Below are positions 5,486 through 58,385 of a stretch of 64,000 bases of DNA, piece after piece; position 1 is the stretch's first letter, and every line of letters begins with the position of its first letter. Origin of the DNA: Minisyncoccota bacterium (lineage in GTDB: Bacteria; Patescibacteriota; Minisyncoccia; Phycocordibacterales; UBA2100); the NCBI GenBank assembly GCA_036517335.1, contig DATDWX010000033.1, positions 9 to 64,008 of the forward strand, in the 5' to 3' direction. The notes beneath the pieces are model-generated. The model had not been told where the DNA came from. It saw only the letters and a list, made by a program, of their open reading frames with translations, and did no database searches. Position numbers and translations under genes: made by a program.

Positions 5486-7525
5486 ATGGCAGACAAAAAA
5501 AAGAAGAAGGCGGGTTCATACAACGCCGCGGACATCACCGTCCTCGAGGGATTGGAGGCGGTACGGAGGAGGCCGGGGATGTACATCGGCACGACCGACA
5601 CGTCGGGCTTGCATCATCTTGTCTGGGAAGTATTCGACAATTCGCGCGACGAGGCGATGGGTGGTTTTGCAAACGACATCGAAGTGGCGCTCCTTCCCGA
5701 CGGCTCGGTGCGCGTCGCCGACAATGGTCGCGGCATTCCAGTAGACGTCCATTCGAAAACAAAAGTCTCCGCGCTCGAAACGGTAATGACAAAATTGCAC
5801 GCCGGTGGCAAATTCGGTGGTGAAGGCTACAAGGTATCCGGCGGCTTGCACGGCGTGGGTGTCTCGGTCGTCAATGCGCTTTCGGATGCGGTGCGTGCGG
5901 AAGTGCATCGTGATGGCGGCGCATACGTGCAGGAATATAAAAATGGTGGCACGCCCGTGAGTAAGATCAAAAGAATGGGCTCGTCGGATCTGCACGGCAC
6001 CATCATCCGCTTTCGCCCCGATTCTTCGGTCTTTCCGGAACGCACATTCAATTGGGAGACGATCGTGGCACATATGCGCCAGCAAGCGTACCTCGTGCGC
6101 GGTTTGAGGATCTCTATCCTCGATCTGCGGCAGGTGCCCAAAGTCGACGTAGAGGACGCGTTCTATGTTCGTGAGCTGGGCATCGAAGCTCCCTCGGTGA
6201 GCTTTTATTTCGAGGGTGGTCTCCGCAGTCTCGTGGCGTTCCAGAATCGTCATCAGGAGCCCATCCACAAAACTATTTTTTACGTGGAGAAGGAAGAAGA
6301 CAACGTGCAGGTGGAGATAGCACTGCAGTATGTAGACGACATCAACGCGCGTCTTTCCGCTTTTGCAAATAATATCTACACTGCCGAAGGCGGTATGCAT
6401 GTGACCGGTTTCAAGGGCGCTCTCACCCGTTCGCTGAACGCACAAATAAAGAACGGTGGTGGCAAGGAGAGCGAGAGTTTTACCGGCGACGACTGCCTGG
6501 AGGGGATGACGGCGGTCATTTCGGTAAAGCTGCGTGAGATCCAATTTGAGGGACAAACGAAAGCCAAGCTCGGCTCGGTAGAGGCGCGCGCCGCGACGGA
6601 GGCGGTGTTTGGGGAAGCATTCAGCGCTTTTCTCGAAGAGCATCCTGACGAAGCCCGGGCAATCATCGCGAAAGTAAGCTTGGCCATGAAGGCGCGCAAG
6701 GCAGCCAAGGCCGCTAAGGATTCGATCCTGCGCAAAGGCGCCCTAGACGGCATGACACTGCCGGGCAAACTTGCCGACTGCCAAACGAAATCAGCAGAGG
6801 AATCCGAGCTGTTTATCGTCGAGGGGGATTCCGCCGGTGGCACTGCCAAAGCAGGTCGCGATCGCCGTACACAGGCGATATTGCCGCTGCGCGGAAAGAT
6901 CCTCAACATCGAGCGGGCGCGACTCGACAAAATGCTCGCCTCCGAGCAGATACGAAATCTTGTGGTCGCTCTCGGGACAGCGATAGGGGATATTTTTGAC
7001 ATTTCCAAATTGCGGTATCACAAGATCATTATCGCCACCGATGCCGACGTGGACGGCGCGCACATCCGCACGCTGCTCCTTACGCTTTTATTCCGACACT
7101 TCCGTCCGGTCATTGACGGCGGCTTTCTCTACATTGCGCAGCCGCCGCTCTACAAGATCAGAAAGGGGAAGGAAGTCGCGTATGCATACAGCGAGGCCGA
7201 AAAGGTTGGCATTGCGGGGAAAGATACCCCGATTGAAGAAGAAACATCGGGGCAAGGGGAGCCAGAGATTCAAGAGGCGACGCCTCTTGAATCTGGGAAA
7301 CGAACTCCAAAAATTTCGGTACAACGCTACAAAGGTCTGGGTGAGATGAATGCCGAGGAATTGTGGGAGACAACGATGGATCCGGCCAAACGCGTGCTTA
7401 TGCAAGTCACCATCCTCGATGCCCAAGAGGCCGACCAGGTCTTCGATATGCTCATGGGCACCGACGTCCCAGCCCGCAAGTCATTCATCCAGTCTCACGC
7501 GCGCGAAGCGACGCTGGATATTTAG
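5486..7525 (+). CDS. gyrB: DNA gyrase subunit B
   Basis: MADKKKK..YNAADITVLEGLEAVRRRPGMYIG, the GHKL ATPase, a TOPRIM (EGDSAGG) and QRYKGLGEM. Confidence 0.95.
   Translation: MADKKKKKAGSYNAADITVLEGLEAVRRRPGMYIGTTDTSGLHHLVWEVFDNSRDEAMGGFANDIEVALLPDGSVRVADNGRGIPVDVHSKTKVSALETVMTKLHAGGKFGGEGYKVSGGLHGVGVSVVNALSDAVRAEVHRDGGAYVQEYKNGGTPVSKIKRMGSSDLHGTIIRFRPDSSVFPERTFNWETIVAHMRQQAYLVRGLRISILDLRQVPKVDVEDAFYVRELGIEAPSVSFYFEGGLRSLVAFQNRHQEPIHKTIFYVEKEEDNVQVEIALQYVDDINARLSAFANNIYTAEGGMHVTGFKGALTRSLNAQIKNGGGKESESFTGDDCLEGMTAVISVKLREIQFEGQTKAKLGSVEARAATEAVFGEAFSAFLEEHPDEARAIIAKVSLAMKARKAAKAAKDSILRKGALDGMTLPGKLADCQTKSAEESELFIVEGDSAGGTAKAGRDRRTQAILPLRGKILNIERARLDKMLASEQIRNLVVALGTAIGDIFDISKLRYHKIIIATDADVDGAHIRTLLLTLLFRHFRPVIDGGFLYIAQPPLYKIRKGKEVAYAYSEAEKVGIAGKDTPIEEETSGQGEPEIQEATPLESGKRTPKISVQRYKGLGEMNAEELWETTMDPAKRVLMQVTILDAQEADQVFDMLMGTDVPARKSFIQSHAREATLDI
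7267..7293. repeat. 27-bp perfect palindrome GATTCAAGAGGCGACGCCTCTTGAATC lying in frame in gyrB (encodes IQEATPLES)
   Basis: Exact palindrome. It sits in the variable loop before QRYKGLGEM, which is about 25 aa longer than in the B. subtilis GyrB. Confidence 0.8.
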
Positions 7526-14856: not shown

Positions 14857-14921
14857 TAAAACAATTGACGGGTGCGAGCTCTCCTGCTTCGCCAAGGCTT
14901 CGCAGGACAAGAAAGTGAACG

Positions 14922-14950
14922 AAAAACCGCCCCAAAGGCGGTTTTTCGTT
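14922..14950 (+). terminator. Rho-independent terminator (aaaaaccgcc ccaaa ggcggttttt)
   Basis: Perfect stem with a flanking T-run after the repeat-protein gene. Confidence 0.7.
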
Positions 14951-18453: not shown

Positions 18454-21400
18454 TTACAGTGCTTTCGCTCGCTCTACGACAAAGCTGGGCTCGCCGTTTC
18501 TTTCAGAAATTCTGCCTTTCAGCATGACGCAGGTGCCGGGGGCGAGGAGGGCTTCGTGTTCTTTTAAGATGCGGGGAAACGCGACGGCTTCGATGCCACC
18601 GGAGAGGTCGGCGAGTTTGAGGAAGAGCATACGCTCGCCGTTTTTCGTTAGGATATACTGCACGCTTTCGATGAATCCGGCGATGACCGTCTCGACGCCG
18701 CGCAGATTTTCTTTGGCATGCTGGATGGTTGTTTTCTGATTCGCCAATTTTTCTTTGTGCTTATCGAGCGGGTGACCGGAAATATAGAGGCCGAGCAATT
18801 CCTTTTCCCACACCAACCGTTGATCCATCGTCGCCGGAGGTGCGGGCGGCAACTTCAGCGCCGCAGGCGCTGAAGTTGCCGCTCCGAACAAAGAACCCTG
18901 ATCGGTCGGCGCCTTCATGTGTTCGCGATGATAGGTGAGGAGCAGTTCAACGTTGGCAAAAAGCGCTCCGCGCTCTCCCAGATCATCTAATGCACCACAT
19001 TGGATCAGCGCCTCAAGGGACTTCTTGTTCAAGTTCTTATCGGGGATACGGGAGATAAAGTCGGCAATATCTTTGAACGCGCCGCCCGACTCTCTGGCGG
19101 CAATGATCGAATCCCCCACTCCTGTGCCGAAATTTTTGATGGAGTAAAGACCAAAGCGGATATTCGTCTGATCTACCACAGTAAACACGCCACCACTCTC
19201 ATTGACTGAAGGCGGCCACACGTGGATACCCATTCGTTTGCATTCCGCGACCGCTTCAGCGATTTTTTCCACGTCGCCGGCGTCAGCTGTTAGCACCGCA
19301 GCCATATAGTCCACAGGGAAGTTGGCCTTCATGTACGCCGTTTTGTACGCGAGCGAGCCGTAAGAAGCCGCATGGGCTTTGTTGAATCCGTATGCAGCGA
19401 ATGTCTCTATTTGCTCCCATAATTTTTTTGCTGCATCTGGCTTCATGCCGTTATGTATACAGCCAGTAGTAAAACGCTCTTTCTGTGCCGCCATTTCTTT
19501 CGGCACTTTCTTTCCCATTGCTTTGCGGAATTTGTCGGCCTCGCCCCATGAGTACCCTGCGAGCTGCACAGCTATCATCATCACGTCGTCCTGATAAATG
19601 AGGACGCCATACGTAGGCTTCAAGATTTCCTCCAGACGCGGATCGAGATAGCGCACGCGTGCTGGATTTTTCTTGCGCTCAATGTATTCAGGGATGAAGG
19701 CCATGGGGCCTGGCCGGTAGAGAGCGACCATCGCATTCAAGTCATGGATGACGGTCGGCTTTAGCTCTTTGAGATACGACGTCATACCGCCACCCGCCAT
19801 TTGAAAGACGCCGAGGGTTTCGCCGCGGGTGAGCATCTCGTACACTTTCCCATCGTCGAGCGGAATGCGATCGAGATCCACTTCTTGCCCGAGCCGCGCG
19901 CTCACGCGCGCGACGGAGTCGGCGAGGACCGACAGGTTGGTGAGTCCGAGGAAGTCGAATTTGAGAAGGCCCACGCCGCCATATTCGTCGGCGATAGAGT
20001 ACATGTCGTACTGGGTGATCATTTTGCCACCTTTCGGGTCCATTTGGATCGGCGAGTAGTTGACCACAGGCTCCGGCGCGAGGATCACACCCGCCGCGTG
20101 CACACCGACATGCCGCGCGTTGCCCTCTATCTTTTGCGCAAAGTCAATAATTTCTCGCGCGTCGGGATCATTCTCATACACTTGTTTGAGTTCTGGCACG
20201 CTCTCTAGTGATCCCGCAATAGAGACAGGGAAGCCCTGCTTGCCGAAGGGGATCATTTTGGCCAGAGAATCGCCCTTGCCGTAGGAGTGCCCGAGTGCTC
20301 GCGAGACATCCCGCACTGCAGCGCGCGCCATCATCGTGCCGAACGTGCCGATCTGTACCACTTTGTTCTCGCCGTACTTTTCTCGCGCGTACTCTATTAG
20401 TTCGTCGCGGCGAAAGGCGTCGATATCCATGTCGATATCCGGCGCGCTCGGCCTCTCGGGATTGAGGAAGCGCTCGAAGGGCATGTTGAACTCGAGGGGA
20501 TTGACGCTCGTGATGCCGCAGAGATAGGAGACCAAGGAGCCAGCTGCGGAGCCGCGCGTATTAGTGAAAATGCCTCTCCCCCGTGCCCACGCGAGGAGAT
20601 CAGCGACGATGAGGAAGTACGATGCGTAGCCCTTTTGCCTGATAATGTCGAGTTCATAATTGACCCGCGCCCACATCTCGTGCGATTCCGTGAGTTCGCG
20701 CTCTTTGATGCCGCGCTCAGTGAGCACTCGCAGCTCATGATCGTCCGTGGACCCTGGGGGAATGGGGAAGTTGGGAAAAATGACCTTGCCCAGCGTGAGC
20801 TTGAGGTCGCAGAGATCGGTGATTTTTTGTGCATTTTCGAGCGCCTCGGGCGTGTCGGCGAAAAGTTCAGCAGCGCGTTCGCTTGTAATGAATGAAAAAT
20901 CCGGGCCACTGCCCGCCGATTCACGATCAAGCGTACCCCCCGTGCGTATCTTGATGACGAGCTCGCGCGCGGCCGCGTCCTCTTTCTGCATATAGTAAAC
21001 GTCGTGCGCCGCCACCAATTCGACAAGCTCATGGCGAGCTAGTGTGACAATACGGCGCATCTTTTCCTCGTGTCCTTCGACTTCCGGGTGGTGGGTGATT
21101 TCGATGAAATATTTTTCTCCATACAATTTTTTGTACCACGCCAGGATTTCTTTCGCACGTTCGACATTCCCGTCCGCCAAAGCGCGGGCATGCTCACCCG
21201 AAAAGCTGGGCAGTATCGCAATCAATCCATCGCGGTGTTGCTCCATCAATTCCCTATCAATGCGCGGGCGATAATAAAATCCTTCGAGATACGATTTTGA
21301 TACGAGCTGGAGAAGATTGTGATACCCCGCCTCATTCGCCGCGAGCAACACAAGCCGCGAGTGTCTATCGTCCACCCGGTGCTCTTTATCGCGCCGCGTG

Positions 21401-21645: not shown

Positions 21646-21722
21646 CATTACTCGATTTTTCTTGCAGCGTGGTTCGCGAGCAGCCTCCTTCATTTTGCCT
21701 GCCTGCCAGTGGGCAGGATACT

Positions 21723-22337
21723 ATGGAACAGATGAAATACCTCATCGGCATCGACGAGGCGGGGCGGGGGCCTTTGGCTGGGCCGGTTGCCGTGGGGGCG
21801 GTTGTTGTTCCTCGGAATTTTGATTGGAAGCTCGTCGCTGGTGCCAAGGATTCCAAGCAGATGACCCCGGCGGGGCGGGAGAGCTTGTACTCCACGATGA
21901 GCGAATTGCGCAAGGAGGGAAAACTCGATTTTGTCGTTGCATTTTCCTACCCAGCCATGATTGATCGGCAGGGCATTGTTCCGGCGATCCAAAGCGCCCT
22001 CAACCGAGCCCTGAGCAAAATTCAAGAGGCGTCGCCTCTTGAATGCGAGGTGCGGCTCGACGGGAATCTCAAGGCTCCCTCCGAGTTCGTTCATCAAACC
22101 ACTATCATCCGCGGCGACGAGTCGGAGTCTGTCATTTCCCTAGCCTCGATCGCTGCCAAGGTGGAGCGTGATCTCCTGATGGCGCGGCTTGCTACGAAGT
22201 ATCCGGCGTACAGATTTGAAAAACACAAGGGGTACGGCACCGCAGAGCACAGGCGGAACATCCGGGAGTTTGGGCTCTGCAAAATTCACCGGGCCACATT
22301 TTGCACACGTTTGCTTCTTGGCTCAAATGCAGTATAA
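21723..22337 (+). CDS. rnhB: Ribonuclease HII
   Basis: IGIDEAGRGPLAGPV, DSKQ, the LDGN..., KGY motifs. Confidence 0.85.
   Translation: MEQMKYLIGIDEAGRGPLAGPVAVGAVVVPRNFDWKLVAGAKDSKQMTPAGRESLYSTMSELRKEGKLDFVVAFSYPAMIDRQGIVPAIQSALNRALSKIQEASPLECEVRLDGNLKAPSEFVHQTTIIRGDESESVISLASIAAKVERDLLMARLATKYPAYRFEKHKGYGTAEHRRNIREFGLCKIHRATFCTRLLLGSNAV
22020..22044. repeat. 25-bp perfect palindrome ATTCAAGAGGCGTCGCCTCTTGAAT in frame in rnhB (encodes KIQEASPLE)
   Basis: Exact palindrome. Same family and same coding phase as the gyrB and tsaD copies. Confidence 0.8.
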
Positions 22338-36642: not shown

Positions 36643-36673
36643 AATATTAGTGGTTTACGAAACCACTAATATT
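36643..36673. repeat. REP-like 31-bp palindrome AATATTAGTGGTTTACGAAACCACTAATATT overlapping the RAYT1 stop codon
   Basis: 14-bp perfect arms. Copy 1 of 3 of this family. Confidence 0.75.
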
Positions 36674-37328
36674 CCAGGCGGTACTCCTTGAGAGAGCTTG
36701 CTTGGTTGGATCGCAAGAATGACGAGATTTCTTTTTTGTAGTCCTTAAAGACGTCGGAGAAGAGTTCGGTTGTCAGAATTGATGGAAAATTGTGTGTCCC
36801 CGTGTAGTCGAGGTAGCTGCTCCACTTATATTTTTCAAGAGTTTGCAATGCAGCTGTAGCACTCTGCAAACCATGTTGCCGCCATTCCTTGCCGCCGCGA
36901 GAAAAGTCGAGTGGATTACTATGAATGTAATTGAGAATGTGCAAAAAATGTGCGTCGGTATGGATGTGAACCTTCTTGCTGCGTCCCTGAAAAAGCGTGC
37001 CTTGCCGTTTATATCGCTCGTTAAAGTAATTGGCATATCCCACGTTCAGGCGACGAATAAACTTTGTAAGGCCGCCGTCTATCCGTTCAGATATGAGAAG
37101 GTGATAGTGATTTCCCATAAGACACCATGCATGCAGATCAACGATCCGCTCCTTTGCCATATAGTGGTTTCGTAAACCACTAATATCAGACGCGCGATGC
37201 CAAACATTTTTTGCGTCTTCAACGTCATTGAATTCCCACATGTCGTGTACGAACCGGGCCCTGTCCTTGTCATCAAGGAATAATGATCGCTTATCAACGC
37301 CGCGATTCAAAACGTGGTACAGCTCCAT
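36666..37328 (-). CDS. REP-associated tyrosine transposase (RAYT) / IS200-like HUH-Y1 transposase, copy 1
   Basis: HUH motif (AWCLMGNHYHLLI) and a Y1 motif (LNYIHSNPL; compare YIYINPV in E. coli RayT). 220 aa, flanked by REP-like palindromes. Confidence 0.8.
   Translation of the reverse strand: MELYHVLNRGVDKRSLFLDDKDRARFVHDMWEFNDVEDAKNVWHRASDISGLRNHYMAKERIVDLHAWCLMGNHYHLLISERIDGGLTKFIRRLNVGYANYFNERYKRQGTLFQGRSKKVHIHTDAHFLHILNYIHSNPLDFSRGGKEWRQHGLQSATAALQTLEKYKWSSYLDYTGTHNFPSILTTELFSDVFKDYKKEISSFLRSNQASSLKEYRLEY
37159..37186. repeat. REP-like palindrome (ATATAGTGGTTTCGTAAACCACTAATAT) inside the RAYT1 coding sequence (encodes DISGLRNHY)
   Basis: Same arms as the flanking copies with a complementary centre. 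Confidence 0.7.
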
Positions 37329-37337
37329 ACCATCATT

Positions 37338-37369
37338 ATATATTAGTGGTTTACGAAACCCCTAATATT
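37338..37369. repeat. REP-like palindrome ATATATTAGTGGTTTACGAAACCCCTAATATT immediately upstream of the RAYT1 start
   Basis: One mismatch relative to copy 1. Confidence 0.7.
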
Positions 37370-37518: not shown

Positions 37519-39300
37519 ATGTCAGATACTGTGCAGCAAATTAAGGATAGGTTGTCTATTACGGATGTGGTCAGCCAGTACGTGAAATTGGAACGAGCGG
37601 GCTCGACACTCCGCGCCCGTTGCCCTTTCCACGCCGAGAAAACACCCTCCTTTTTCGTCTCGCCCGAACGCGGCACCTACCACTGCTTCGGTTGCAATGT
37701 GGGCGGCGACATATTCTCGTTCGTCGAGCAGATCGAGGGACTGGATTTTAAAGGGGCGCTGAAGATTCTTGCAGAAAAAGCCGGCGTGGAGATCGTGTAC
37801 CGGGGCAAGGGTGAGTCTCGGGAGGGCAGGGATGAACGCGACCGATTATTTGCGCTTATGGAAACGGCCGCGATCTTTTATGCGTCGCGCTTGAGCGACG
37901 GGGCGCGGAGTTATTTACAGGGACGCGGCGTCGAAGACGCCACCGTACACGCTTTTCGTATTGGCTGGGCAGGCAATGAGTGGAGCGAGGCGTCGGATTA
38001 TCTGAAAGGCAAAAGGTTTACCGACAAAGAAATGATTGACGCCGGTATTGCAAAGAAAAACGAACGTGGCAACCTGACCGACAAATTCCGCAACCGCATC
38101 ATGTTTCCTATTGCGGATTCAGCCGGGCGCGTGGTGGCTTTTTCTGGTAGAATTTTTGGTGAGCACGCCTCTCCCGAGGCACCCAAATATTTGAATAGCC
38201 CCGAGACGCAGCTGTATCACAAATCCCGGATACTCTACGCATTCGACCGCGCCAAAATGGCTATCCGCAAGGCTGCTTGCGCGGTCTTGGTGGAAGGACA
38301 GATGGATCTCATTATGAGTCACCAAGCAGGATGGACCAACACCGTTGCCGTTTCGGGTACCGCCTTCACGCAGGAGCACGCAGCGCTTATTCGGCGGATG
38401 ACGGATAATCTCGTGCTTGCCCTCGACGCTGATCAGGCGGGTATAAAAGCAGCGGGTCGCGCTGCCCGGGTGGCCCTGCAGGGCGGACTCAATGTGAAAG
38501 TAGCCCAGTTGCCCGAGAATATGGACCCCGCCGACCTCATCGCGAAGCGCGGCATTGATGCGTGGAAAACAGCAATTCGTGAGGCTAAAGACATCATCAC
38601 CTTTTTGCTTGATGTGCTCGAGAAGCACCTGCCTGCGCAGGCAGGTGCCCAGCACAGCGACCGATTTCGCCGTGCGGTGGAGACGGTCGTACTGCCGTTT
38701 GTGGTGGATGTGGGAAGCCCGATTGCGCGTGAGCAGTATATGCGGCAAATCGCAGGGCGCCTCGGCGTCTCGGAGAGCGCAGTCGCAGAGGCGCTGAAGC
38801 GCGTGCCGACCGAGTCTCTCACGACAGGCACCAAGGGAATGGTGGCACCGCCTGAAAGTGGGACAACCACACTGAAGGGTCTCGATAGGGTACAGCCCTC
38901 CTTCGCCAAAGGTTTCGAGAGGACGCGGCATGGATATGCCTTGCTCCTTCTGCAAACTTCGATGCCAAAACCGGACATTGATATTGTGCAATACGCGCGA
39001 GAGCTTGAGGTCGCAATAGGCAAAGAGGCATTCAAAGCTCTCGAAGCCTTGAGCGAATCCGAAAAGGAAGTCCTTCGTTTTTCTGCCGAACGCTTGTACA
39101 GTGCGAGCAAGAATGTAGTGCGTGACGCCCATGAGCTCGTGAAGATCCTCCACGAGGAACGATTGCGGCGCGAACTTGCCGAAGTGGTCAAACTGCAGCA
39201 AAAGGCCGAACGCGCAGGTGGCAAGGCCGAACTGGCCACGCTGGAGAAGCGATCGAAGGTGTTGATAGCCAAGATTGCACAATTGCACGGAAAGGGATAG
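37519..39300 (+). CDS. dnaG: DNA primase
   Basis: Zn-ribbon CPFHAEKTPSF...CFGC and a TOPRIM (VEGQMD, DADQAG). Confidence 0.9.
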   Translation: MSDTVQQIKDRLSITDVVSQYVKLERAGSTLRARCPFHAEKTPSFFVSPERGTYHCFGCNVGGDIFSFVEQIEGLDFKGALKILAEKAGVEIVYRGKGESREGRDERDRLFALMETAAIFYASRLSDGARSYLQGRGVEDATVHAFRIGWAGNEWSEASDYLKGKRFTDKEMIDAGIAKKNERGNLTDKFRNRIMFPIADSAGRVVAFSGRIFGEHASPEAPKYLNSPETQLYHKSRILYAFDRAKMAIRKAACAVLVEGQMDLIMSHQAGWTNTVAVSGTAFTQEHAALIRRMTDNLVLALDADQAGIKAAGRAARVALQGGLNVKVAQLPENMDPADLIAKRGIDAWKTAIREAKDIITFLLDVLEKHLPAQAGAQHSDRFRRAVETVVLPFVVDVGSPIAREQYMRQIAGRLGVSESAVAEALKRVPTESLTTGTKGMVAPPESGTTTLKGLDRVQPSFAKGFERTRHGYALLLLQTSMPKPDIDIVQYARELEVAIGKEAFKALEALSESEKEVLRFSAERLYSASKNVVRDAHELVKILHEERLRRELAEVVKLQQKAERAGGKAELATLEKRSKVLIAKIAQLHGKG

Positions 39301-46183: not shown

Positions 46184-47038
46184 ATGGCGAGGAAAAAAAC
46201 GGCATTGCCCATAACCCACTGGAGCTACTCCTCGTTAATGTCTTATTTGCGCAATCCTTTGGCTTGGTACAAGCGCTACGTAGAGCACGTGTACGACACG
46301 CCTTCGTCGCCCGCGGGTATCATTGGCCGGGCGGGGCATGTGGCCTTGCAACATTTCTACAGCGGGATAGCGAAGGAGGGCGCGATTGATCTAGGATTGG
46401 AATATTTGCGCAGCGTGCCGGACTTTGAGATCAATTTTGGCAAGCTAAAGTCCCTGCCTGCCGGCAGGCAGGGTGCCGCGCAAAGGAGAAAGCGCCAGCT
46501 GATGGGACGCGAATACCTGCAGGCGGTCGCTTTCTACTTGGAGAAGCCGCCACGCTACGATGTCTTGGGCGTGGAGGTCAGGGCCGACGCACTAGTACAA
46601 GGATTGCCCCTGCCGATACGTGCGGTATCCGATCTCGTCGTGCGGTCAAAGGGGGAGCGGGATGCGCTTGATGTCGTAGATCACAAATTTGTGGATTCTT
46701 TCAGCGCGCTCGGCGCTGGCAAGACGCTCTTCGTCATCCAAGCCATCTTCAACTACTACACCGTCTCACAGATGTACGATAGACCTGTACGCCGCTTCAT
46801 TCTGCAGGAGTGCAAAAAAAGAAAAAACGCCGACGGCTCACCCCAAATGCGCAAATATGTAATCAACTTCGACGAACGAGCCGAAGATTTCGCCCTCTTC
46901 CACCGTTTAATCAAGGAAACAACGGCCGATCTCGCAAAGCGACAACACTTCCTCCCCAATCCATCTGATATGTTCGAAGGCGAGAATTCCTTTGATATTT
47001 ATCGGCTTGGATTGACTGGTAAAAATCACACGTTATAA
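46184..47038 (+). CDS. PD-(D/E)XK nuclease superfamily protein (RecB/Cas4-like N-terminus, no Cys cluster)
   Basis: N-terminal HWSYSSLMSYLRNPLAWYKRYV and a D...D-x-K-like motif (ALDVVDHKF). Confidence 0.5.
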   Translation: MARKKTALPITHWSYSSLMSYLRNPLAWYKRYVEHVYDTPSSPAGIIGRAGHVALQHFYSGIAKEGAIDLGLEYLRSVPDFEINFGKLKSLPAGRQGAAQRRKRQLMGREYLQAVAFYLEKPPRYDVLGVEVRADALVQGLPLPIRAVSDLVVRSKGERDALDVVDHKFVDSFSALGAGKTLFVIQAIFNYYTVSQMYDRPVRRFILQECKKRKNADGSPQMRKYVINFDERAEDFALFHRLIKETTADLAKRQHFLPNPSDMFEGENSFDIYRLGLTGKNHTL

Positions 47039-47151: not shown

Positions 47152-50100
47152 ATGCAAAGCTCAATACACACGAATGTCGGGCGCGTTTTTAGGGTCGGTT
47201 TTATTACTTTGATCATCCTTGCTGCAGTGGCTTTGGTGAGCGTTCCATCGGCGGACGCAGCCGTGGCGTACCGCGCTTCGGCCGCGACCTGCAACGCGAC
47301 AGCGAATACTTCCGTGAGCGTTCCTTCTGGCACGATAAACGGCGATGTGATGCTCATGGTCATCAATTCCAAAGACAATGCGGTGCAAGCCACATCTACC
47401 GGCTGGACACGGATCGGTACCCAGCTCAACAACGGCAGCTCGCTGACGACAAGCATCTTCTATCGCGTCGCAAGTAGCGAACCAGCGAGTTACTCGCCTG
47501 CCACGACGGCAGTGTCGCACTGTCTTAGCATCTCATCTTTTAGCGGCGCAGACGCGACTTCTCCCATCAATGCTTCAAGTCAGCGCGCCAACGCATCTTC
47601 TATCACTGTTACCGCAAATGCAATTACGCCAAGTATCGCCGATACACAAATAGTATTTATTTCCGGGTACGGAGACAACAGTACCCATAGCAGTTATAGC
47701 GGAACCAACCCCACCTTTACCGAGCGTTTTGATGTACGTACATCGCTGGGCACGGATAATGCCATTGCGCTTGCATCGGGCGCAAAAACAGACACGACGA
47801 GCACCGGCAACAGGACGGCGGTCGCCACGTCTCCTGCCGCAGTCAACAACGGCTACCTTATCGCCCTTGCGCCGGGAGCGCCCTCGACACTAAGCATCTC
47901 GGGCACCTGTAAGCAGCACGACAACATCACCAACTGTACCGACACGGGGACGGTGCGTGTGGCCGTTGACGGCGTCTTACAGGGGCAAACGCAAGCCACC
48001 GTCGCTGGCTCATGGACCATCTCGGGCGTGACCGCCTCTGCCGGTGCCGTGATTACGGTGTTTATCGACGGCGTCGCCTCGAGCGAAGAGCGCGCAGTAG
48101 CCGTCACCACGTATGTAGGCAGCGGTGACGTGGCAGGGCTCGAGCTCATCGAAGGAGCGCTCAGCCTCGGCAGCAGCGAAAACCGCACCCTCACTAATGC
48201 CAACATCGCGCAGTATGACAATTCGGTATCCGGAGATGCTGATATATTCGACGACGTAAATGCGGGCAACGACCTCACCGTCGATGCCAATAGCTCGATA
48301 ACCGGCGAATTGCTGTACGTAAAAAGCGGCAATACGTACCGCCCCGACAGCACGAGCTCCGGATTCATGACGACGCACGACCTCGAAAACCGAGGAACAC
48401 TTCAGACAGACGGTAATACCATTACGCTCGACGGCTCGTGGAAAAATAGCGGCACGTTTACGGCAAACACTTCGCTGGTCACGTTCAATTCTGCTGTCGG
48501 CGGAACAGTGAGCGGCACCTTAAGCGGCACGTCTGCGTTCAACAAAGTACTATTTGATGGCGGCGGCGCATGGACGATTCAAAATGCTATGAAAGTATCG
48601 GCTGCAAATGCTACTGACACATTTGTGATCAAAAACGGCACGACCACCATCGGCGATTCGAGTGGCGACAATTTGGAAGTAAATGGCAAACTCGTCATCG
48701 CAGGAACCGCCGGAGAAATGGGTACGTTGCAAACTGCGGCCCTCCCACAAGGTAGCACCATCACGATCGACCTCAACAACAACACATCTCCCGCTACATG
48801 CGCCAACTGCATCATTTCTGTCGGTGCTTCTTCTGGCGCTGGCGCTGGCAGCTTGAAGCTGAAGAAAAACACGATTTTGAGGCTCAATCCTCGATCGACG
48901 GCAACAGCATCAGATACCGGTGTCGAAGTACAGTCGACTGGGTATCTGGAGATCCTCGGCAGCCAGGAGGCCACCAACACGGTCGCCTCCCTTACACAAA
49001 ATACATCGGGCACCACGATCACCGTAGCCGGTACGCCGTTTTCTTCTGGCCAGTGGGACGGTATGGCGGTTCGCTTCACGTCTTCGAGCACGCCAAGCTT
49101 CGGCAAAATATACACGGCAACCAGCACGGCAAGCAGCAGTATCACCATCACCGCCGTGACTTCTCCCACCGATTCAGATGCACAGGTACGGGGCGCTGAC
49201 ACGGCCTGTGCAGGAAGCGGCAACTGCACGGTCGATGTTGCGGATACGCTTTTTAGTGCAACCGGTCAGTATGTCGGCAGCTATCTCCACAACATTACCG
49301 ACGACAAGTACTACCTCATAGCAAGTACGACCGAGGCGACCACCGACTCGGTACGCATCGTCAGCAACTCACCGGACGATTTTGCGACGATGAACGATGG
49401 TGACGATGTCGAGATTACCGACGGTATCCGCTCTGGTGATGCGTTCGAGGTCATTGACTACGCCCACGTTACCGCCGAGAGCGGTACCGCATGCACCTCA
49501 GCCATCAATCAGGGCGGTGAGGCGTACATCGCTGGAAAGGCGGGTTCAGAAACAGTGATTCGCTATGCCGATATGTGCAATCTCGGCAAGGGTGTCACAA
49601 GCAAGTTCGGACTTACCTTCGAGAGCGTGAATGGCGCGGGTGCAGGAGAAGGCGTCACGGTCGACGACTCGCGAATACGTAAGGGCATGCGCGGTATCGC
49701 GCTCATCAGTTCGTCGGGGAATAGCGGAGGGAAGGGTATAACCAACAACACTATCGAGAATAGTTTTGATTATGGCCTGCACCTCAACGCCAGTTCCAAT
49801 AATGCCATTTCGTCTAACCTCAGCTCCGATAACCTGGTCGGTATGCTCCTCGAGGCTAGCAGCAACAGCAATACGGTAGCAAGCAACAAGGTGTCTCGCA
49901 GCACCGCACACGGCGTCGCCCTCGTTACCTCTTCGGGTAACTCGGTTACGGATAACAGCATCTTCCACAATGGCACCGTCTACGAAAGTCACCACGGCCT
50001 CTTTTTGCTCGGTACTTCCAACAACAACGTACTTGATGGAAACAAGGTGTACGACAACATCACCTGGGGCGTCGCACTCTTCAACGGCGCATCAAACAAC

Positions 50101-51474
50101 ACCGTCTCCAACAACGACGCGCACAACAATCGCAAATCGGGCATTGTCATCGGAGAATATGACAACACGATTTTCAGCAACCAAAGCTTCAATAACGGCT
50201 ATCACGGCATGACACAAGTCTGCCCCAATGCTGACAACCTCAATACCATTCTCTTCAACAATTCGTTCTACCAGAACGATAAGCTCGGCCTCATGCTCGA
50301 GAGCGGTTTCGATTGTCTCGCTACCGTCATCCATGACAACTACGGCGGGCAGGGCGCCAACGCCGTAGCCGATCTCTGGATGGCCGCCGCAGGAGCGCCA
50401 ACACCGGGAGATCACAAGATGGTGCTGTACGACACGACGCTCGCCTCTCCGACCGAGTCCAACTTTACCGAGGTGGCGAACGTAAACGCGTACGCGATAT
50501 CAAAGAAGCACGACGGGGCAAGCGGCGCTACGCAAATCTGGGGTAAGTACGCGGTACCGGCAAATGATTCCGAAACGCCGCAAAATGAAAGCATCGCAGC
50601 GTACAATTATGCAAACAATCTCTGGGAGAAGAGCGCATCGCCCCACGGCTACGCGGGTACGGGAACCGAAGACAGCAATCTCAACTACGATCTCTCTACT
50701 GCAACGCTCTCTGGAGGTCCCTACCACTACCGAGCCACAGTCAAGACCGCCGGCAGTGCAAACTGCGCGACCGCAGCCGAGTTTGACGTATATCGCAACA
50801 ATGTAGACGTGGGCGATGCTACGTGCGGCAGCACCTTTACCGACGCCACGACCGGGGTATCGTTCAAGATCGACGGCGGAGCGACCGGGTACGCAGTCGG
50901 CGATTCGTACACGTTTACCGCATGGGACGCTTCAGGCGACAGCAGCACACAAAAGACCGTGACCATGATGCAGGATAAGGACACCTTCACCACTCCTGTG
51001 TCCACAACACTAGAACTGAAAGGTGAATCTGCCAGCCTCAATCCTACACTCATTACTCGCGGCGGCACCGGCGGGTACCAGTTTGCAATTAACGGTACGC
51101 TCGATGCCGATAGCTACCAATTCGACTACCTCGGCGGTACCGGGCAGAGCGCCGGACTGCTCCTCAACAGCGGCTCGACGATTGCCTCGCTCGATAACGG
51201 CAGCTTCGACAACTTCGGGGTAGGCAGCGGCAGCGCCGATGCCTTTGTCCAAGTGGCCAGCTCGCTCATCGGCTCGAGTACGCCCGCCCTCCTTATCTCT
51301 GGCACAAACTTCGCAAATTCCGGCTCAAATGCGGAGTGTAACCTCAATGCAAGTGGGTCAGCAGCGGGCTACTGGGAATTCCAGAGCTTCACGGGAGCGT
51401 TCGCGGGAGAGAACTTCGATTGTCAAAACGGCTCAGCCGATTCCGACCCGGGCAACTTCGTCTGGACACCGTAG
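47152..51474 (+). CDS. Giant secreted/anchored right-handed beta-helix (PbH1 repeat) surface protein, 1440 aa
   Basis: Signal/TM at the N-terminus. Numerous N-x-[IV]-x-x-N parallel beta-helix repeats (NNTIENSFDYGLHLNASSNNAISSN...). Confidence 0.7.
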   Translation: MQSSIHTNVGRVFRVGFITLIILAAVALVSVPSADAAVAYRASAATCNATANTSVSVPSGTINGDVMLMVINSKDNAVQATSTGWTRIGTQLNNGSSLTTSIFYRVASSEPASYSPATTAVSHCLSISSFSGADATSPINASSQRANASSITVTANAITPSIADTQIVFISGYGDNSTHSSYSGTNPTFTERFDVRTSLGTDNAIALASGAKTDTTSTGNRTAVATSPAAVNNGYLIALAPGAPSTLSISGTCKQHDNITNCTDTGTVRVAVDGVLQGQTQATVAGSWTISGVTASAGAVITVFIDGVASSEERAVAVTTYVGSGDVAGLELIEGALSLGSSENRTLTNANIAQYDNSVSGDADIFDDVNAGNDLTVDANSSITGELLYVKSGNTYRPDSTSSGFMTTHDLENRGTLQTDGNTITLDGSWKNSGTFTANTSLVTFNSAVGGTVSGTLSGTSAFNKVLFDGGGAWTIQNAMKVSAANATDTFVIKNGTTTIGDSSGDNLEVNGKLVIAGTAGEMGTLQTAALPQGSTITIDLNNNTSPATCANCIISVGASSGAGAGSLKLKKNTILRLNPRSTATASDTGVEVQSTGYLEILGSQEATNTVASLTQNTSGTTITVAGTPFSSGQWDGMAVRFTSSSTPSFGKIYTATSTASSSITITAVTSPTDSDAQVRGADTACAGSGNCTVDVADTLFSATGQYVGSYLHNITDDKYYLIASTTEATTDSVRIVSNSPDDFATMNDGDDVEITDGIRSGDAFEVIDYAHVTAESGTACTSAINQGGEAYIAGKAGSETVIRYADMCNLGKGVTSKFGLTFESVNGAGAGEGVTVDDSRIRKGMRGIALISSSGNSGGKGITNNTIENSFDYGLHLNASSNNAISSNLSSDNLVGMLLEASSNSNTVASNKVSRSTAHGVALVTSSGNSVTDNSIFHNGTVYESHHGLFLLGTSNNNVLDGNKVYDNITWGVALFNGASNNTVSNNDAHNNRKSGIVIGEYDNTIFSNQSFNNGYHGMTQVCPNADNLNTILFNNSFYQNDKLGLMLESGFDCLATVIHDNYGGQGANAVADLWMAAAGAPTPGDHKMVLYDTTLASPTESNFTEVANVNAYAISKKHDGASGATQIWGKYAVPANDSETPQNESIAAYNYANNLWEKSASPHGYAGTGTEDSNLNYDLSTATLSGGPYHYRATVKTAGSANCATAAEFDVYRNNVDVGDATCGSTFTDATTGVSFKIDGGATGYAVGDSYTFTAWDASGDSSTQKTVTMMQDKDTFTTPVSTTLELKGESASLNPTLITRGGTGGYQFAINGTLDADSYQFDYLGGTGQSAGLLLNSGSTIASLDNGSFDNFGVGSGSADAFVQVASSLIGSSTPALLISGTNFANSGSNAECNLNASGSAAGYWEFQSFTGAFAGENFDCQNGSADSDPGNFVWTP

Positions 51475-51616
51475 AAAGACCCTGAGGTTTGAAAAGACGC
51501 AGCAACTCATTTCCGCGAACCCTCGAAAATGGAGGGTAGATACGTAGAATGGAACTGGAGCCCACGACACTCGACAATTGTCTTCTTCACTTTCTTTACT
51601 GCGTTCGCACCTTTAG

Positions 51617-51673
51617 CAGGTCACACCACTTCCTCCCCAACCCGTCAGATATGTTCGAAGGAGAGAACAGTTT
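51617..51673 (+). repeat. Synonymously recoded duplicate of the PD-(D/E)XK nuclease 3' end (HFLPNPSDMFEGENSFDI*)
   Basis: Same peptide as 46946-46999 with synonymous substitutions (tcc to agt Ser, ttt to ttc, gat to gac, and others). Lies 4.6 kb downstream, after the giant gene and immediately before REP-B/RAYT2. Confidence 0.7.
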
Positions 51674-51707
51674 CGACATTTAACGTCTTGGGTTATTGGA
51701 AAAATAA

Positions 51708-51744
51708 TGAAAGACATCGGATGTTGGACATCCGATGTCTTTCA
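51708..51744. repeat. REP-like palindrome TGAAAGACATCGGATG-ttgga-CATCCGATGTCTTTCA upstream of RAYT2
   Basis: 16-bp perfect arms. Shares the GACATCCGATGTC core with 52426-52452. Confidence 0.7.
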
Positions 51745-51759
51745 TGGTATCATTGGGGT

Positions 51760-52422
51760 ATGGATCTGTACCACATTTGCAATCGGGGTGTCGATAAGCG
51801 AGAGGTGTTTCTTGATGATGGCGATCGCACACGATTCGTTCATGACCTGTATGTAATGAACGATGTGCATTCGGTGCCGAATCACGGCCGTCATGAGCTA
51901 GGCAACATATCAGATGCAGGACACGAACGAGAGCCACTTGTTCATTTGTACGCATGGTGTCTCATGCCCAACCATTACCACCTACTCCTGTCCCCGGTCG
52001 ACGATGAGCCCGCGAATCTGTCTTTGTTTGCGCAGAAAGTGGGCATGGGCTACTCGAAGTTTTTCAATAAAAAATACAAACGATCCGGTGCCCTTTGGCA
52101 GGGGAAACATAAAAAGGTGCATATACAACGAGACGCTCATTTCCTCTATATTCCGTTCTATATCCATCTTAATCCTCTCGACCTATCGATTCCGGAATGG
52201 CGTCACGGGCGGGTGAAGGATGTGGACAAGGCCTTGGAACAACTAAGCGGCTATCGCTGGAGCAGTTTTCTCGACTATACTGGAGTAAAAAATTTCCCGT
52301 CCCTTATCGACAAACCTCTGCTTACAGATATGCTCGGTTCGCGCAAGAAACAAAGCAAGATAATAGCGGATATCATCGGCGACGGAATATTGGCAAATTC
52401 CAGCTGGGCATTAGAGATGTAG
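51760..52422 (+). CDS. REP-associated tyrosine transposase (RAYT) / IS200-like HUH-Y1 transposase, copy 2
   Basis: AWCLMPNHYHLLL (HUH) and FYIHLNPLD (Y1). 220 aa, a paralogue of 36666-37328. Confidence 0.8.
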   Translation: MDLYHICNRGVDKREVFLDDGDRTRFVHDLYVMNDVHSVPNHGRHELGNISDAGHEREPLVHLYAWCLMPNHYHLLLSPVDDEPANLSLFAQKVGMGYSKFFNKKYKRSGALWQGKHKKVHIQRDAHFLYIPFYIHLNPLDLSIPEWRHGRVKDVDKALEQLSGYRWSSFLDYTGVKNFPSLIDKPLLTDMLGSRKKQSKIIADIIGDGILANSSWALEM

Positions 52423-52425
52423 AAC

Positions 52426-52452
52426 AATGAGGGACATCCGATGTCCTTCATT
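52426..52452. repeat. REP-like palindrome AATGAGGGACATCCGATGTCCTTCATT immediately downstream of RAYT2
   Basis: 13-bp arms with one mismatch. Confidence 0.65.
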
Positions 52453-52464
52453 GGTAAAGGATTG

Positions 52465-52782
52465 TTACTGGATTAAATGCGGCGCGAATATCAGGGCGAA
52501 TGTAAAAAAGAGTAGAAAAAGCCACAATGGGGAAGTTAATACGACAAGAATTACCCATCTTCGTTTGATGAACGTATCGGTGACCCGATTGCTTAAACTG
52601 GATGAGTCAGGTCTAGCCTTGAATGCGAAAAGGATAGAAGCACCTATGGCTATGCTAGTTAACCCAACAAGACGGACCATTCCTTCATCGCACTGTCCTG
52701 AACCTGCTCCACAGGGCGCCAAACTAATTAAGAGAATGATAAAACCAATCGCAAAGAAAACGGCTGCGGAAAGTGCCCTCAT
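52465..52782 (-). CDS. Hypothetical 3-TM membrane protein
   Basis: ORF only. Confidence 0.3.
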   Translation of the reverse strand: MRALSAAVFFAIGFIILLISLAPCGAGSGQCDEGMVRLVGLTSIAIGASILFAFKARPDSSSLSNRVTDTFIKRRWVILVVLTSPLWLFLLFFTFALIFAPHLIQ

Positions 52783-52792
52783 GATACATCGT

Positions 52793-53296
52793 TTACCGAG
52801 CGCGGACTTTGAGTTTGGTCTGCCGAGCCTTATTGATCTTTGGCAGGCGGATCATGAGGATGCCGTGCTTTTCACTAGCTTCGGCCAGGTCCACGTCTAC
52901 TTCTTCGGGGAGGAGGATGGTGCGGGAAAATGAGCCCCAGTAGAGCTCCTTTTGATAGTAGTTGTCTTCCTCGACTTCTTTTTCATCCTGCCTTGTGCCC
53001 GATACGGTCAGCGTCTCACGCGTGAGAGAAATGTCTACAGAATTTGGCTGCACGCCAGCAATGAGCGCTTTCACCACGATGGCGTCCGGCGTCTGGTATA
53101 CGTCTACCGCTAATTCCCCAGCCACATCATCACCCGCTTCCTTCGGCCAGCTTTCGCCCTTGGTACTGATATGCGCGTGGCGCTCGCCGCCTGCCCCATG
53201 GAAAACGGCCGGCGTGCCAGCTGCAAAAGTGTCATCGGAATAATCATCATCGCTACCGCCCGCGAGCCTTGAGAAAAAAGATTGTTTTTTCACCAT
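52793..53296 (-). CDS. Small heat-shock protein (Hsp20/alpha-crystallin family)
   Basis: Alpha-crystallin domain (LAVDVYQTPDAIVVKALIAGV...SFSRTILLPEEVDVDLAEASEKHGILMIRLPK). Confidence 0.75.
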   Translation of the reverse strand: MVKKQSFFSRLAGGSDDDYSDDTFAAGTPAVFHGAGGERHAHISTKGESWPKEAGDDVAGELAVDVYQTPDAIVVKALIAGVQPNSVDISLTRETLTVSGTRQDEKEVEEDNYYQKELYWGSFSRTILLPEEVDVDLAEASEKHGILMIRLPKINKARQTKLKVRAR

Positions 53297-57182: not shown

Positions 57183-58385
57183 TTACACGTTTGCCAGCCT
57201 TAAATTCCCACTGGCGCGAAGAGATGCCGGATCGGCGAATTCTTTTTTGAGAGCGTGGAAATAGCCGGCTAGCGCGATCATGAGGGCGTTGTCGGTGGCC
57301 CATTCGGGTGCGGGGATGAGGAGTTGGACATCCTGTTCATCGAGTGCTTCTTTGAGCCGTTGTTTGATATGCGTGTTGGCCGAGACGCCGCCGCCAACTA
57401 AGACCGTTTGTGCGCCATGTTCCTCCACGGCTCGCAGGGTTTTCGCGACGAGCACGTCGGCGGCGGCGTCTTCAAATTCGCGCGCGATTTCTATTTTCTT
57501 TGCATACGTGAGCGTTCGACCGCCGATCACATTGCGCACTGCTGTTTTCAATCCCGAGAATGAAAAGTCGTAAGATTCATCCTTCATCATCGGCCGCGGC
57601 AATTCAAGAGGCGACACCTCTTGAATCTGACGCGAGCGAGAGGCAAGCCGTGCGATCTCCGGCCCGCCAGGATAGGGAAGTCCCATCATCCGCGCAATTT
57701 TATCAAACGCTTCGCCCACCGCATCGTCGCGCGTCTCACCAATCGTTTTAAACTTTGGCCATTCAGTAATCAAATCCAATTCCGTGTGCCCACCCGAGAT
57801 GAGTAGCGCAATGGCGGGGAATCCGGACTCGTCGATTCTTAATCCCGATACTTCGTTATATAACGAAGTATCGGGATTTGAGACTATCGCCATGGCAATA
57901 TGACCCTCCAGGTGGTTCACAGGTACGATCGGAATATTCCATACTGCGCTCAGCGCTTTTGCAAAATTTACCCCGACCCACAGCGCGGGCTCAAGGCCGG
58001 GGCCGTGCGTCACCGCGATCGCATCAATATCAGGCCTCCCATGTGTTTTTAAAAATTCTTCGAGCGCCTGAAAAAGTTCCGGTTCTCGCACCAGCAATTC
58101 CCGGATGTTCAAGGACCGTCCTTGAACCAATTGGATCAAGGACGGTCCTTGAACAGCTTGAGCGGACTGTGCGAGTACTTCACTTAGAAGCGGGACGAGA
58201 TTTTTTGCATGCTCGCGCTTGGCGAGATTGGGAAAGATGCCGCCGTAGGGGGCATGAGTCGCGATTTGTGAGTGGAGTGCGTTGCCCAGCACTTGAAATT
58301 TGAACGATGCGCCAAATGATCCTTCGGCCTCGATCAAACAAACAGCGGTTTCATCGCACGAGGTCTCTATCCCTAAAATCTTCAT
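57183..58385 (-). CDS. tsaD: tRNA N6-adenosine threonylcarbamoyltransferase TsaD (400 aa, about 55 aa longer than typical)
   Basis: MKILGIETSCDETAV, HLEGHI, GGVSAN. Carries two in-frame palindromic insertions. Confidence 0.85.
   Translation of the reverse strand: MKILGIETSCDETAVCLIEAEGSFGASFKFQVLGNALHSQIATHAPYGGIFPNLAKREHAKNLVPLLSEVLAQSAQAVQGPSLIQLVQGRSLNIRELLVREPELFQALEEFLKTHGRPDIDAIAVTHGPGLEPALWVGVNFAKALSAVWNIPIVPVNHLEGHIAMAIVSNPDTSLYNEVSGLRIDESGFPAIALLISGGHTELDLITEWPKFKTIGETRDDAVGEAFDKIARMMGLPYPGGPEIARLASRSRQIQEVSPLELPRPMMKDESYDFSFSGLKTAVRNVIGGRTLTYAKKIEIAREFEDAAADVLVAKTLRAVEEHGAQTVLVGGGVSANTHIKQRLKEALDEQDVQLLIPAPEWATDNALMIALAGYFHALKKEFADPASLRASGNLRLANV
57602..57626. repeat. Palindrome ATTCAAGAGGCGACACCTCTTGAAT in frame in tsaD (encodes QIQEVSPLE on the minus strand)
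   Basis: 10-bp arms. Same family and phase as the gyrB and rnhB copies. Confidence 0.75.
58107..58154. repeat. 48-bp compound palindrome GTTCAAGGACCGTCCTTGAAC-CAATTG-GATCAAGGACGGTCCTTGAAC in frame in tsaD
   Basis: Two 21-bp palindromes in inverted orientation around CAATTG. Encodes VQGPSLIQLVQGRSLNI. Confidence 0.75.

Follow-up and report, generated by a model that had tools for sequence, protein, structure and literature searches.

A probable RAYT-type HUH-Y1 protein and its candidate cognate palindromes in a Candidatus Paceibacterota genome

Introduction

Nearly all characterized systems of repetitive extragenic palindromic (REP) sequences and REP-associated tyrosine transposases (RAYTs) come from Proteobacteria, cyanobacteria, and a small number of other phyla. 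The subterminal hairpins of the IS200/IS605 insertion sequences (ISs) are recognized as single-stranded DNA (ssDNA). In the present study, we analyzed a 64-kb stretch of DNA (hereafter, the window), which is essentially the whole of contig DATDWX010000033.1 of a Candidatus Paceibacterota metagenome-assembled genome (MAG) from the candidate phyla radiation (CPR, Patescibacteria), and focused on one of its genes, RAYT2, together with the palindromes on either side of it. Our literature search found no paper linking REP/RAYT systems to CPR/Patescibacteria, and with the RAYT2 locus, the range of systems of this known kind grows to include these bacteria with tiny genomes. We give a probability of about 0.6 to the reading that RAYT2 is a single-copy, vertically inherited HUH-Y1 ssDNA endonuclease/transferase of the RAYT/TnpA-REP kind and that the GACATC-N-GATGTC hairpins are its cognate sites. 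With the hairpins on either side as cognate recognition sites, the locus would therefore be a REPtron. An earlier reading of the sequence (the original prediction) had proposed that the window holds two RAYT lineages, each paired with a distinct palindrome family, and this interpretation was partly supported.

The best structural match to RAYT2 is the E. coli REP-associated tyrosine transposase (TnpA-REP/RAYT; TnpAY1 subclass 2.2, Bertels group 2), solved in complex with a REP hairpin (PDB entry 4ER8). In the TnpAY1 classification, Y---NP is the class 2 signature, whereas IS200 transposases carry Y---Q (PMC6006769). Subclass 2.1, or TIRYT (Bertels group 1), has the motifs NH[YF]H, W[EQ]/FQ, Y[IV]HLNP, and an SS tail (Quentin et al. 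2018, PMC6006769), and has been reported to lack REP-like sequences (PMC6006769). TIRYTs are ~240-330 aa long, with a helix-turn-helix (HTH) tail (Bac_DnaA_C / HTH_23 / HTH_28) and GGGGWSAS terminal inverted repeats (PMC6006769; Di Nocera et al. 2013, PMC3733652). REPs within genes, frequently those for replication and repair, have also been described in other phyla (PMC3733652).

Fold and motifs of RAYT2

The window contains two paralogous genes:

51760..52422, plus strand: RAYT2, a 220-aa HUH-Y1 protein (by motifs, fold, and alignment), deposited as hypothetical protein HEY4517136.1
36669..37328, minus strand: RAYT1, 220 aa, 49% identical to RAYT2, annotated "transposase" (Y1_Tnp, 33.5 bits)

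As claimed in the original prediction, the RAYT2 open reading frame (ORF) encodes NHYHLLL and FYIHLNPLD. The HUH motif was located at H72-Y73-H74 (NHYH), with LWQG at residues 112-115, Y134 in YIHLNP (134-139), and RWSS at 166-169. An alignment of 29 homologues indicated that H72, H74, Q114, and Y134, within NHYH, LWQG, and YIHLNP, are invariant, and that the tail motif is YRWSS. By analogy of motif, Y134 is the putative catalytic tyrosine of RAYT2. All aligned homologues begin M-[DE]-[LF]-[YF]-H, and the longer frame at 51529-52422 was therefore regarded as an upstream over-extension of RAYT2. The corresponding motifs of RAYT1 are NHYH, FQ, YIHSNP, and KWSS.

Y1_Tnp and REP_Tyr_transpos were the sole profile matches of RAYT2. 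The Pfam profile PF01797 was present in most homologues, and RAYT1 scored above its cut-off (33.5 bits) and below the NCBIfam one. A phmmer search of the PDB with the single sequence returned nothing relevant, and the family profile matched 4ER8 weakly (E = 0.37), with HUH, WQ, and Y..NP aligned; we therefore relied on structure prediction and Foldseek. The AlphaFold (AF2) model of RAYT2 had a pLDDT of 90.3, with a dip at residues 41-60. Its top Foldseek match in the PDB was 4ER8_A (E = 8.8e-6, probability 1.00), followed by the ISDra2, IS608, and IS200 transposases. The HUH-Y1 identity proposed earlier was thus borne out, the nearest solved structure being the E. coli REP-associated transposase.

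In addition to the HUH-Y1 fold, RAYT2 shares with the E. coli system the Y---NP and WQ motifs, vertical inheritance, a single-copy gene between cognate palindromes (some of them inverted doublets), and paralogues with their own palindrome families. However, the two proteins are only ~14% identical, and RAYT2 falls below the REP_Tyr_transpos cut-off. RAYT2 also differs in its length of 220 aa and in its ~80-aa helical tail, which carries the YRWSS motif. The palindromes differ as well, being perfect or near-perfect, symmetrical, without a GTAG foot in the window, and few rather than in the hundreds.

Palindromes on either side of RAYT2

Two palindromes and two tentative features were recorded at the gene:

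51707..51745, no strand: upstream hairpin ATGAAAGACATCGGATGT-tgg-ACATCCGATGTCTTTCAT, with an 18-bp stem free of mismatches and a loop of 3 nt
52425..52453, no strand: downstream palindrome CAATGAGGGACATC-c-GATGTCCTTCATTG, its arms of 14 bp including one G.T/A.C position, starting 3 nt past the stop codon
51725..51753, plus strand: tentative promoter-like site TGGACA-17-TATCAT, 10/12, with TG, called from the consensus match alone
51904..51927, plus strand: tentative, possible decayed internal palindrome doublet (~14/22 nt resemblance, judged by eye)

Palindromes had been predicted on both sides of the gene and were found there, the upstream stem being two pairs longer than first written. In the upstream hairpin, the core is present twice in inverted, overlapping form (GACATCgGATGT / GGACATCcGATGTC), which makes a REPIN-like doublet; the hairpin ends 14 nt 5' of the start codon. 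The upstream and downstream hairpins have GGACATCCGATGTC in common. Within the 64 kb, the exact 13-nt core GACATCCGATGTC occurred only at 51727 and 52433, and the upstream hairpin has as its left arm a further copy, at 51713, with 1-2 mismatches. When matches with at most two mismatches were counted, the window held 6 against 1.9 expected, which was not significant (4/100 shuffles reached 6). Folded as ssDNA, the upstream hairpin reached -19.7 kcal/mol (z = -9.5, 0/200 shuffles) and the downstream hairpin -10.3 kcal/mol (z = -5.0). Compared with the orthologous locus L121, the 13-nt core was the sole recognizably conserved piece of the 370-nt downstream spacer. The gene content of this spacer varies among orthologous loci.

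Scans of the whole window with Rfam (gathering thresholds) and for tRNAs gave no matches, and the Rfam result indicated that the hairpins are not a known RNA family. A terminator reading was rejected, as a T-tail is present only when the upstream hairpin is read on the minus strand. The right arm of the upstream hairpin contains the -35 hexamer of the promoter-like site, whose -10 hexamer ends 6 nt before the ATG; the region held 4 such matches against 1.9 expected. This overlap would tentatively fit autoregulation. On a broader version of this view, the palindromes would be mainly expression signals (terminator, insulator, promoter/operator, or mRNA stability/RNase sites), with autoregulatory binding at most and no mobilization. 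Their stereotyped positions across the family (upstream copies 5-50 nt before the start codon, downstream copies at or just past the stop codon), the promoter overlap, the terminator-like T-run after the hairpin on the minus strand, and the lack of solo copies around most homologues are in keeping with this explanation. We nevertheless consider it unlikely, in part because the plus-strand hairpins have no T-tails.

Co-variation of protein and palindrome

RAYT1 is flanked by a palindrome, TAGTGGTTTCGTAAACCACTA (0 expected by chance), that is unlike the one at RAYT2:

37340..37368, no strand: RAYT1 upstream palindrome ATATTAGGGGTTTCGTAAACCACTAATAT (palindrome search, ssDNA fold)
36643..36673, no strand: RAYT1 downstream palindrome AATATTAGTGGTTTcgtAAACCACTAATATT, overlapping the stop codon (palindrome search, ssDNA fold)
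37162..37182, no strand: RAYT1 internal in-frame palindrome copy (TAGTGGTTTacgAAACCACTA), encoding ISGLRNHY, residues 49-56 (from the sequence)

A second paralogue with its own, different palindrome is thus present as proposed. In a protein search, we retrieved more than 2,200 homologues with lengths of ~215-225 aa, mostly annotated "hypothetical" or "transposase"; those with a named source were nearly all from Kaiserbacteria, Paceibacteria, and other CPR. To compare their surroundings, we used 80 metagenome loci with relatives and the loci found earlier. In 48/57 short family members, the 5' and 3' flanks had at least 12 identical nt in common (median 19), compared with 9/400 mismatched pairs in the null. 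The shared sequence is the palindrome: its upstream copy stops 5-50 nt short of the start codon, and its downstream copy begins at or just past the stop codon.

These numbers bear on a skeptical explanation, in which ordinary intergenic hairpins merely share a core beside a degenerate, non-functional transposase remnant. The profile scores of RAYT2 below the Pfam and NCBIfam cut-offs and the non-significant count of inexact cores would suit such a coincidence. It is effectively refuted, however, by the same layout in 48/57 relatives, the palindrome types that follow the protein clades, and the intact ORF under strong purifying selection. The exact 13-mer occurring twice within 750 nt, the perfect 18-bp stem with its z of -9.5, and the high-confidence model with a Y1 fold also speak against it.

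In 17/38 members, a complete third copy of the palindrome was found in frame between +131 and +202 nt, ahead of the HUH motif. Internal copies are present in RAYT1 (37162-37182) and at L128, L133, L135, L137, L138, L142, L143, L147, L149, L152, L157, L158, L162, L164, L167, and L177, and they map to the low-confidence loop of the model (residues ~41-60). RAYT2 appears to keep a decayed trace of such a copy, judging from the sequence at 51904-51927, which falls in the same loop; this segment encodes NISDAGHE, where an intact doublet would give TSDVGHP. In-frame copies inside the gene are shared with the tnpA-REP genes of subclass 2.4 (RAYTs of cyanobacteria and Bacteroidetes), whose symmetrical "double-foot" GTAG...CTAC palindromes also resemble those at the orthologous loci L205 and L124. 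Subclass 2.4 differs in its motifs (NH[IFV]H and YIxNNP), its phyla, and its insertion site, as the internal copy of the CPR family precedes the HUH motif at residues ~45-65.

Internal and flanking copies within one gene share arms of up to 11-12 bp, outer positions included, and the outer arm positions differ between close relatives. Because the copies are alike within a gene and different between genes, these results indicated concerted evolution at three fixed positions. Between genes the cores vary widely, for example GACTTCGTAAGTC, GAAGTCGGACTTC, GGTGTCCGACACC, and AGAGGCGACGCCTCT. All members of the RAYT2 protein cluster carry GGACATC-N-GATGTCC or a one-base variant, and all members of the RAYT1 cluster carry a stem ending in TT with a CGT/ACG loop (..TT-CGT-AA..). 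Two further protein clusters each have their own core, so that each cluster corresponds to a single palindrome type and vice versa. When protein identity was compared with arm identity in a Mantel test, r was 0.20, a value reached by 16/5000 permutations. The two paralogues of the window therefore fall in two clades, each with its own palindrome type, and these independent comparative data support the predicted co-variation of two lineages with two palindrome families. Palindromes acting mainly as expression signals would leave unexplained both the sequence identity of the 5', internal, and 3' sites and its change with the protein clade.

The palindrome away from the gene

To search for the palindrome apart from the gene, one genome per species was scanned for GGACATCCGATGTCC, which gave at least 119 loci. 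Among the matches listed, CPR accounted for 62 of the 119 loci, a raw count that is not normalized to base count. The CPR groups among these matches were Saccharibacteria, Kaiser-, Nomura-, Giovannoni-, Moran-, Taylor-, Adler-, Jorgensen-, and Niyogibacteria, and Paceibacterota. In the same set, copies extending into longer palindromes made up 42/75 in CPR and 3/58 outside CPR, several MAGs had several copies alike in the 4-5 nt beside the core, and inverted doublets spaced 18-36 nt occurred at about a dozen loci, including L007, L011, L019, L042, L054, L061, L068, L090, and L110. A family member was encoded at only five of the matches listed, and the palindrome therefore exists apart from the gene. 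At L205, a 68% orthologue is flanked by ATGTAGGACATCGGATGTCCTACAT, an identical solo copy of this 27-mer lies 1.4 kb away, and the same sample yielded a Kaiserbacteria MAG contig with two more identical copies.

In many CPR genomes, essential genes contain the core GGACATC[C/G]GATGTCC in frame, single or as a doublet. An automated criterion (palindrome inside an ORF of at least 120 aa) was dropped, since it was confounded by upstream-extended and antisense ORFs, and host genes were assigned by per-case inspection and Pfam:

In-frame core in LeuRS: L092, L111, L035; in TsaD: L002, L054; in DnaE: L011; in LigA: L097, L110
In-frame core in MnmA: L019, L116; in DnaG: L031; in ArgRS: L032; in TatD: L030

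The peptides encoded by these copies include RTSDV, GHPMS, and DIGCP, and direct reading of the sequence showed all six frames of the core to be free of stop codons. In LeuRS, the copies of three genomes lie in one loop with the core read in different frames. This recurrence at the same loops in different frames (RTSDV versus GHPMS) suggested independent insertions at permissive sites. Such solo copies and doublets inside unrelated housekeeping genes of many CPR genomes are also left unexplained if the palindromes are mainly expression signals. The DnaE gene of L011 (865-3726, minus strand), which holds a palindrome doublet, also holds an intein with a LAGLIDADG domain.

Small in-frame palindromes in housekeeping genes, often of replication and repair, are likewise known as intragenic REPs and Rickettsia palindromic elements (PMC3733652). 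The CPR elements differ in being much shorter (a 15-nt core, 25-45 nt in total) and in being tied to a specific Y1 family. The family also accounts for some short odd inserts in CPR housekeeping proteins.

A fixed gene or a mobile element

The layout of the locus also allows another reading, namely that the hairpin-gene-hairpin unit (~750 bp) is an autonomous IS200-like IS, with the palindromes as its subterminal ends and a gene that moves itself. As in IS200/IS605, a Y1 transposase gene lies between subterminal hairpins, present at both ends in RAYT2, and the Y1 fold is shared with the TnpA of IS608, ISDra2, and IS200. The family occupies different loci in different lineages: P0012, 65% identical to RAYT2, adjoins Cpn60 rather than HSP20, and the two paralogues of the window lie at two loci, so that the family has clearly relocated over long times. 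A rearrangement scar, the nuclease 3'-end remnant described below, adjoins the upstream hairpin. Beside P0012 in L124, a 7694-aa giant gene gave an intein match.

The distribution of orthologues pointed in the other direction. P0002 (89%), P0008 (68%), and P0006 (68%) are all found beside HSP20-PrsW-ValRS, as in the window, and for two other family sequences, the identical copies, on 24 and 23 contigs from many samples, shared one genomic context per sequence. The dN/dS ratio of RAYT2 against the 89% orthologue was 0.044, with dS saturated at ~1.4. Synteny, a single context per sequence, and purifying selection together indicated that RAYT2 is a fixed single-copy gene rather than an active IS, which likens it to RAYTs and sets it apart from IS200. 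Moreover, the tyrosine motif is the RAYT-like class 2 Y---NP instead of the Y---Q of IS200 (PMC6006769), and RAYT2, with YIHLNP and 220 aa, differs from the core-only IS200/IS605 proteins of ~150 aa. IS200/IS605 elements are multi-copy, near-identical, horizontally mobile, and often accompanied by tnpB, none of which was seen for RAYT2: the 64-kb contig and the metagenome contigs held no near-identical copies (the paralogues are 49% identical), no tnpB is present, and the palindromes are found alone in other genomes. Since synteny also persists down to 68% identity, we regard a self-moving IS as improbable.

Weighing the REPtron reading

The observations that carry the REPtron reading are the fold and motifs, the layout of a gene between palindromes, palindromes that track the protein clade, the conserved core, the fixed position, and the dispersed core elsewhere. 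The locus works like a REPtron in that fold, motifs, cognate flanks, co-variation, a vertically inherited single copy, and doublets agree. By analogy with E. coli TnpA-REP and the TnpA proteins of IS608 and ISDra2, RAYT2 would bind the hairpin extruded on ssDNA, for example on the lagging-strand template, and would cut at the hairpin foot via Y134, with the metal held by H72/H74. It may then copy or move the palindrome. An activity of this kind would account for the dispersed solo copies and doublets, including in-frame copies tolerated in surface loops of housekeeping proteins, and for the 5', 3', and internal copies of a gene staying identical.

Several results weigh against the REPtron reading. 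RAYT2 scored 19.8 bits against Pfam Y1_Tnp (PF01797; cut-off 23) and 40.3 bits against NCBIfam NF047646 REP_Tyr_transpos (cut-off 80), so that the profile matches anticipated in the original prediction exist, but below both curated cut-offs. The feet of the palindrome copies in the window are GAGG, GAAG, and GAAA, without GT[AG]G; the locus thus fails both the curated-profile thresholds and the expected foot. A GT[AG]G foot was present in only 20/150 CPR half-sites, the general form being xT[AT]G, and GTAG was seen at the orthologous loci L205 and L124 and upstream in L121. Across the family, the 5', internal, and 3' copies were not consistently oriented relative to one another, as would have pointed to a defined unit of excision or inversion. 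No solo copy of the RAYT2 palindrome was found in the 64-kb window, and there were 0 solo copies of the homologues' own palindromes in 256.7 kb around 38 family members; the copy numbers seen there fall far short of classical REP families and speak against high-copy REPs. Solo copies were tied to an R2-clade gene in one sample only, with the contigs assumed to be of one MAG.

By its motifs, RAYT2 also resembles subclass 2.1/TIRYT more closely than the canonical RAYT subclasses. Both RAYT2 (NHYH, WQ, YIHLNP, RWSS) and RAYT1 carry the key TIRYT motifs, a low intragenomic copy number is shared, and the nearest non-CPR relatives of the family are TIRYT-type proteins of ~300 aa with ~30% identity. 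The HTH tail and terminal inverted repeats of TIRYTs were confirmed for L184, L188, L199, and others, with a Bac_DnaA_C HTH tail in the distant relatives L184 and L188. In RAYT2, no Pfam match to an HTH tail domain was found even at E <= 1. Inverted repeats of the GGGGTCAG type flank only the ~300-aa relatives, whereas the CPR family is flanked by hairpin palindromes. The family is thus closest in its motifs to a Y1 subclass thought to be without REPs, yet it offers the clearest possible pairing of gene and palindrome together with co-variation.

As regards the palindromes themselves, the original prediction held in part. REPIN-like doublets were found both as the upstream hairpin and, spaced 18-36 nt, in other CPR genomes. 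Further copies of the palindrome were absent from the rest of the contig and present as solo copies in other CPR genomes, and a REP-like abundance was not borne out in the 256.7 kb around family members. The loss of the xTWG/GTAG foot from the window copies and the absence of solo copies from the contig suggested that this palindrome family may currently be quiescent in this genome.

A more speculative reading, which we hold to be doubtful, is that the CPR family is a self-editing module rather than a classical disperser of REPs, with hairpins placed at or in the promoter region, in the loop that precedes the HUH motif, and at the stop codon. The identity of three copies within a gene would then imply ongoing enzyme-mediated copy-and-replace, similar to gene conversion, or a DNA-level switch or autoregulatory circuit. 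If this were true, in-frame inserts of 15-45 nt would occasionally be seeded in permissive loops (LeuRS, TsaD, LigA, DnaE) across CPR, a source of protein-loop variation in minimal genomes that has not been described before. The family provides compact and very diverse natural protein-hairpin pairs, with dozens of cores and proteins 35-60% identical, which could be used to learn how Y1 enzymes read hairpins.

Neighboring sequence and other palindromes

Upstream of RAYT2, a fragment of a nuclease gene adjoins the hairpin:

51627..51707, plus strand: nuclease 3'-end remnant, a pseudo-duplicate of the PDDEXK gene at 46184-47038 (blastn, 90% over 41 nt to 46946-46986)

This remnant is context and not part of the RAYT unit. 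It also matched the end of the PDDEXK_1 gene of L121 (87% over 78 nt), and blastx aligned HFLPNPSDMFEGENSFDI*RLGL with HFLPNPSDMFEGENSFDIYRLGL. The duplicated nuclease 3' end noted in the original prediction is therefore real, with the peptide HFLPNPSDMFEGENSFDI kept and followed by a stop. The intact 3' end (46946-47038) and the stop-containing remnant bracket a gene for a 1440-aa surface protein (47152-51474). In L121, the order is the nuclease gene, a CDP-alcohol phosphatidyltransferase gene, and the RAYT2 orthologue. Because the nuclease 3' ends bracket the gene and the order in L121 differs, the 4.4-kb surface-protein gene looks like an insertion or rearrangement with partial duplication.

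Downstream, the publicly annotated 168-aa ORF at 52427-52933 (plus strand) has its start within the downstream palindrome (ATGAGGGACATCC...) and overlaps the oppositely oriented HSP20 gene; for both reasons it is probably spurious. For annotation, ORFs that start inside such palindromes (for example, 51529-52422 and 52427-52933) are over-extended or spurious. The 105-aa ORF at 52465-52782 (minus strand) looks like a small membrane protein.

A further palindrome family, P3 (ATTCAAGAGGCG-N-CGCCTCTTGAAT), is represented three times in the window, at 7266-7294, 22020-22044, and 57602-57626. All are in frame, in a GyrB-like ORF (5426-7525), an ORF at 21669-22337, and TsaD (57183-58385), respectively, and they encode IQE[AV][ST]PLE. 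In the window, the in-frame behavior known from Rickettsia palindromic elements is thus shown by P3 and not by the RAYT2 palindrome. There is no RAYT gene near P3, but in L179 a family member has the core AGAGGCG-N-CGCCTCT at its flanks. The copy in TsaD lies in the loop between GGPEI..LA and PRPM, where L002 and L054 carry a GGACATC-type doublet; no P3-type palindrome was found in the orthologous TsaD of L121. TsaD also holds a perfect 19+19-nt palindrome, AATCCCGATACTTCGTTAT|ATAACGAAGTATCGGGATT (57841-57878), and GTTCAAGGAC-c-GTCCTTGAAC (58107-58127), both of which coincide with indel-rich loops relative to the L121 orthologue.

Two zero-loop palindromes, GCACCTGCCTGC|GCAGGCAGGTGC at 38625-38648 (inside the ORF at 37519-39300) and CCCTGCCTGCC|GGCAGGCAGGG at 46452-46473 (inside the PDDEXK nuclease ORF at 46184-47038), share CCTGCCTGC/GCAGGCAGG and may be a fourth small palindrome family. 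The RAYT palindromes have no relation to two other long, perfect hairpins, at 18846-18882 (GCGGCAACTTCAGCGCC-gca-GGCGCTGAAGTTGCCGC, 17-bp stem) and at 14918-14950 (AACGAAAAACCGCC-ccaaa-GGCGGTTTTTCGTT, terminator-like).

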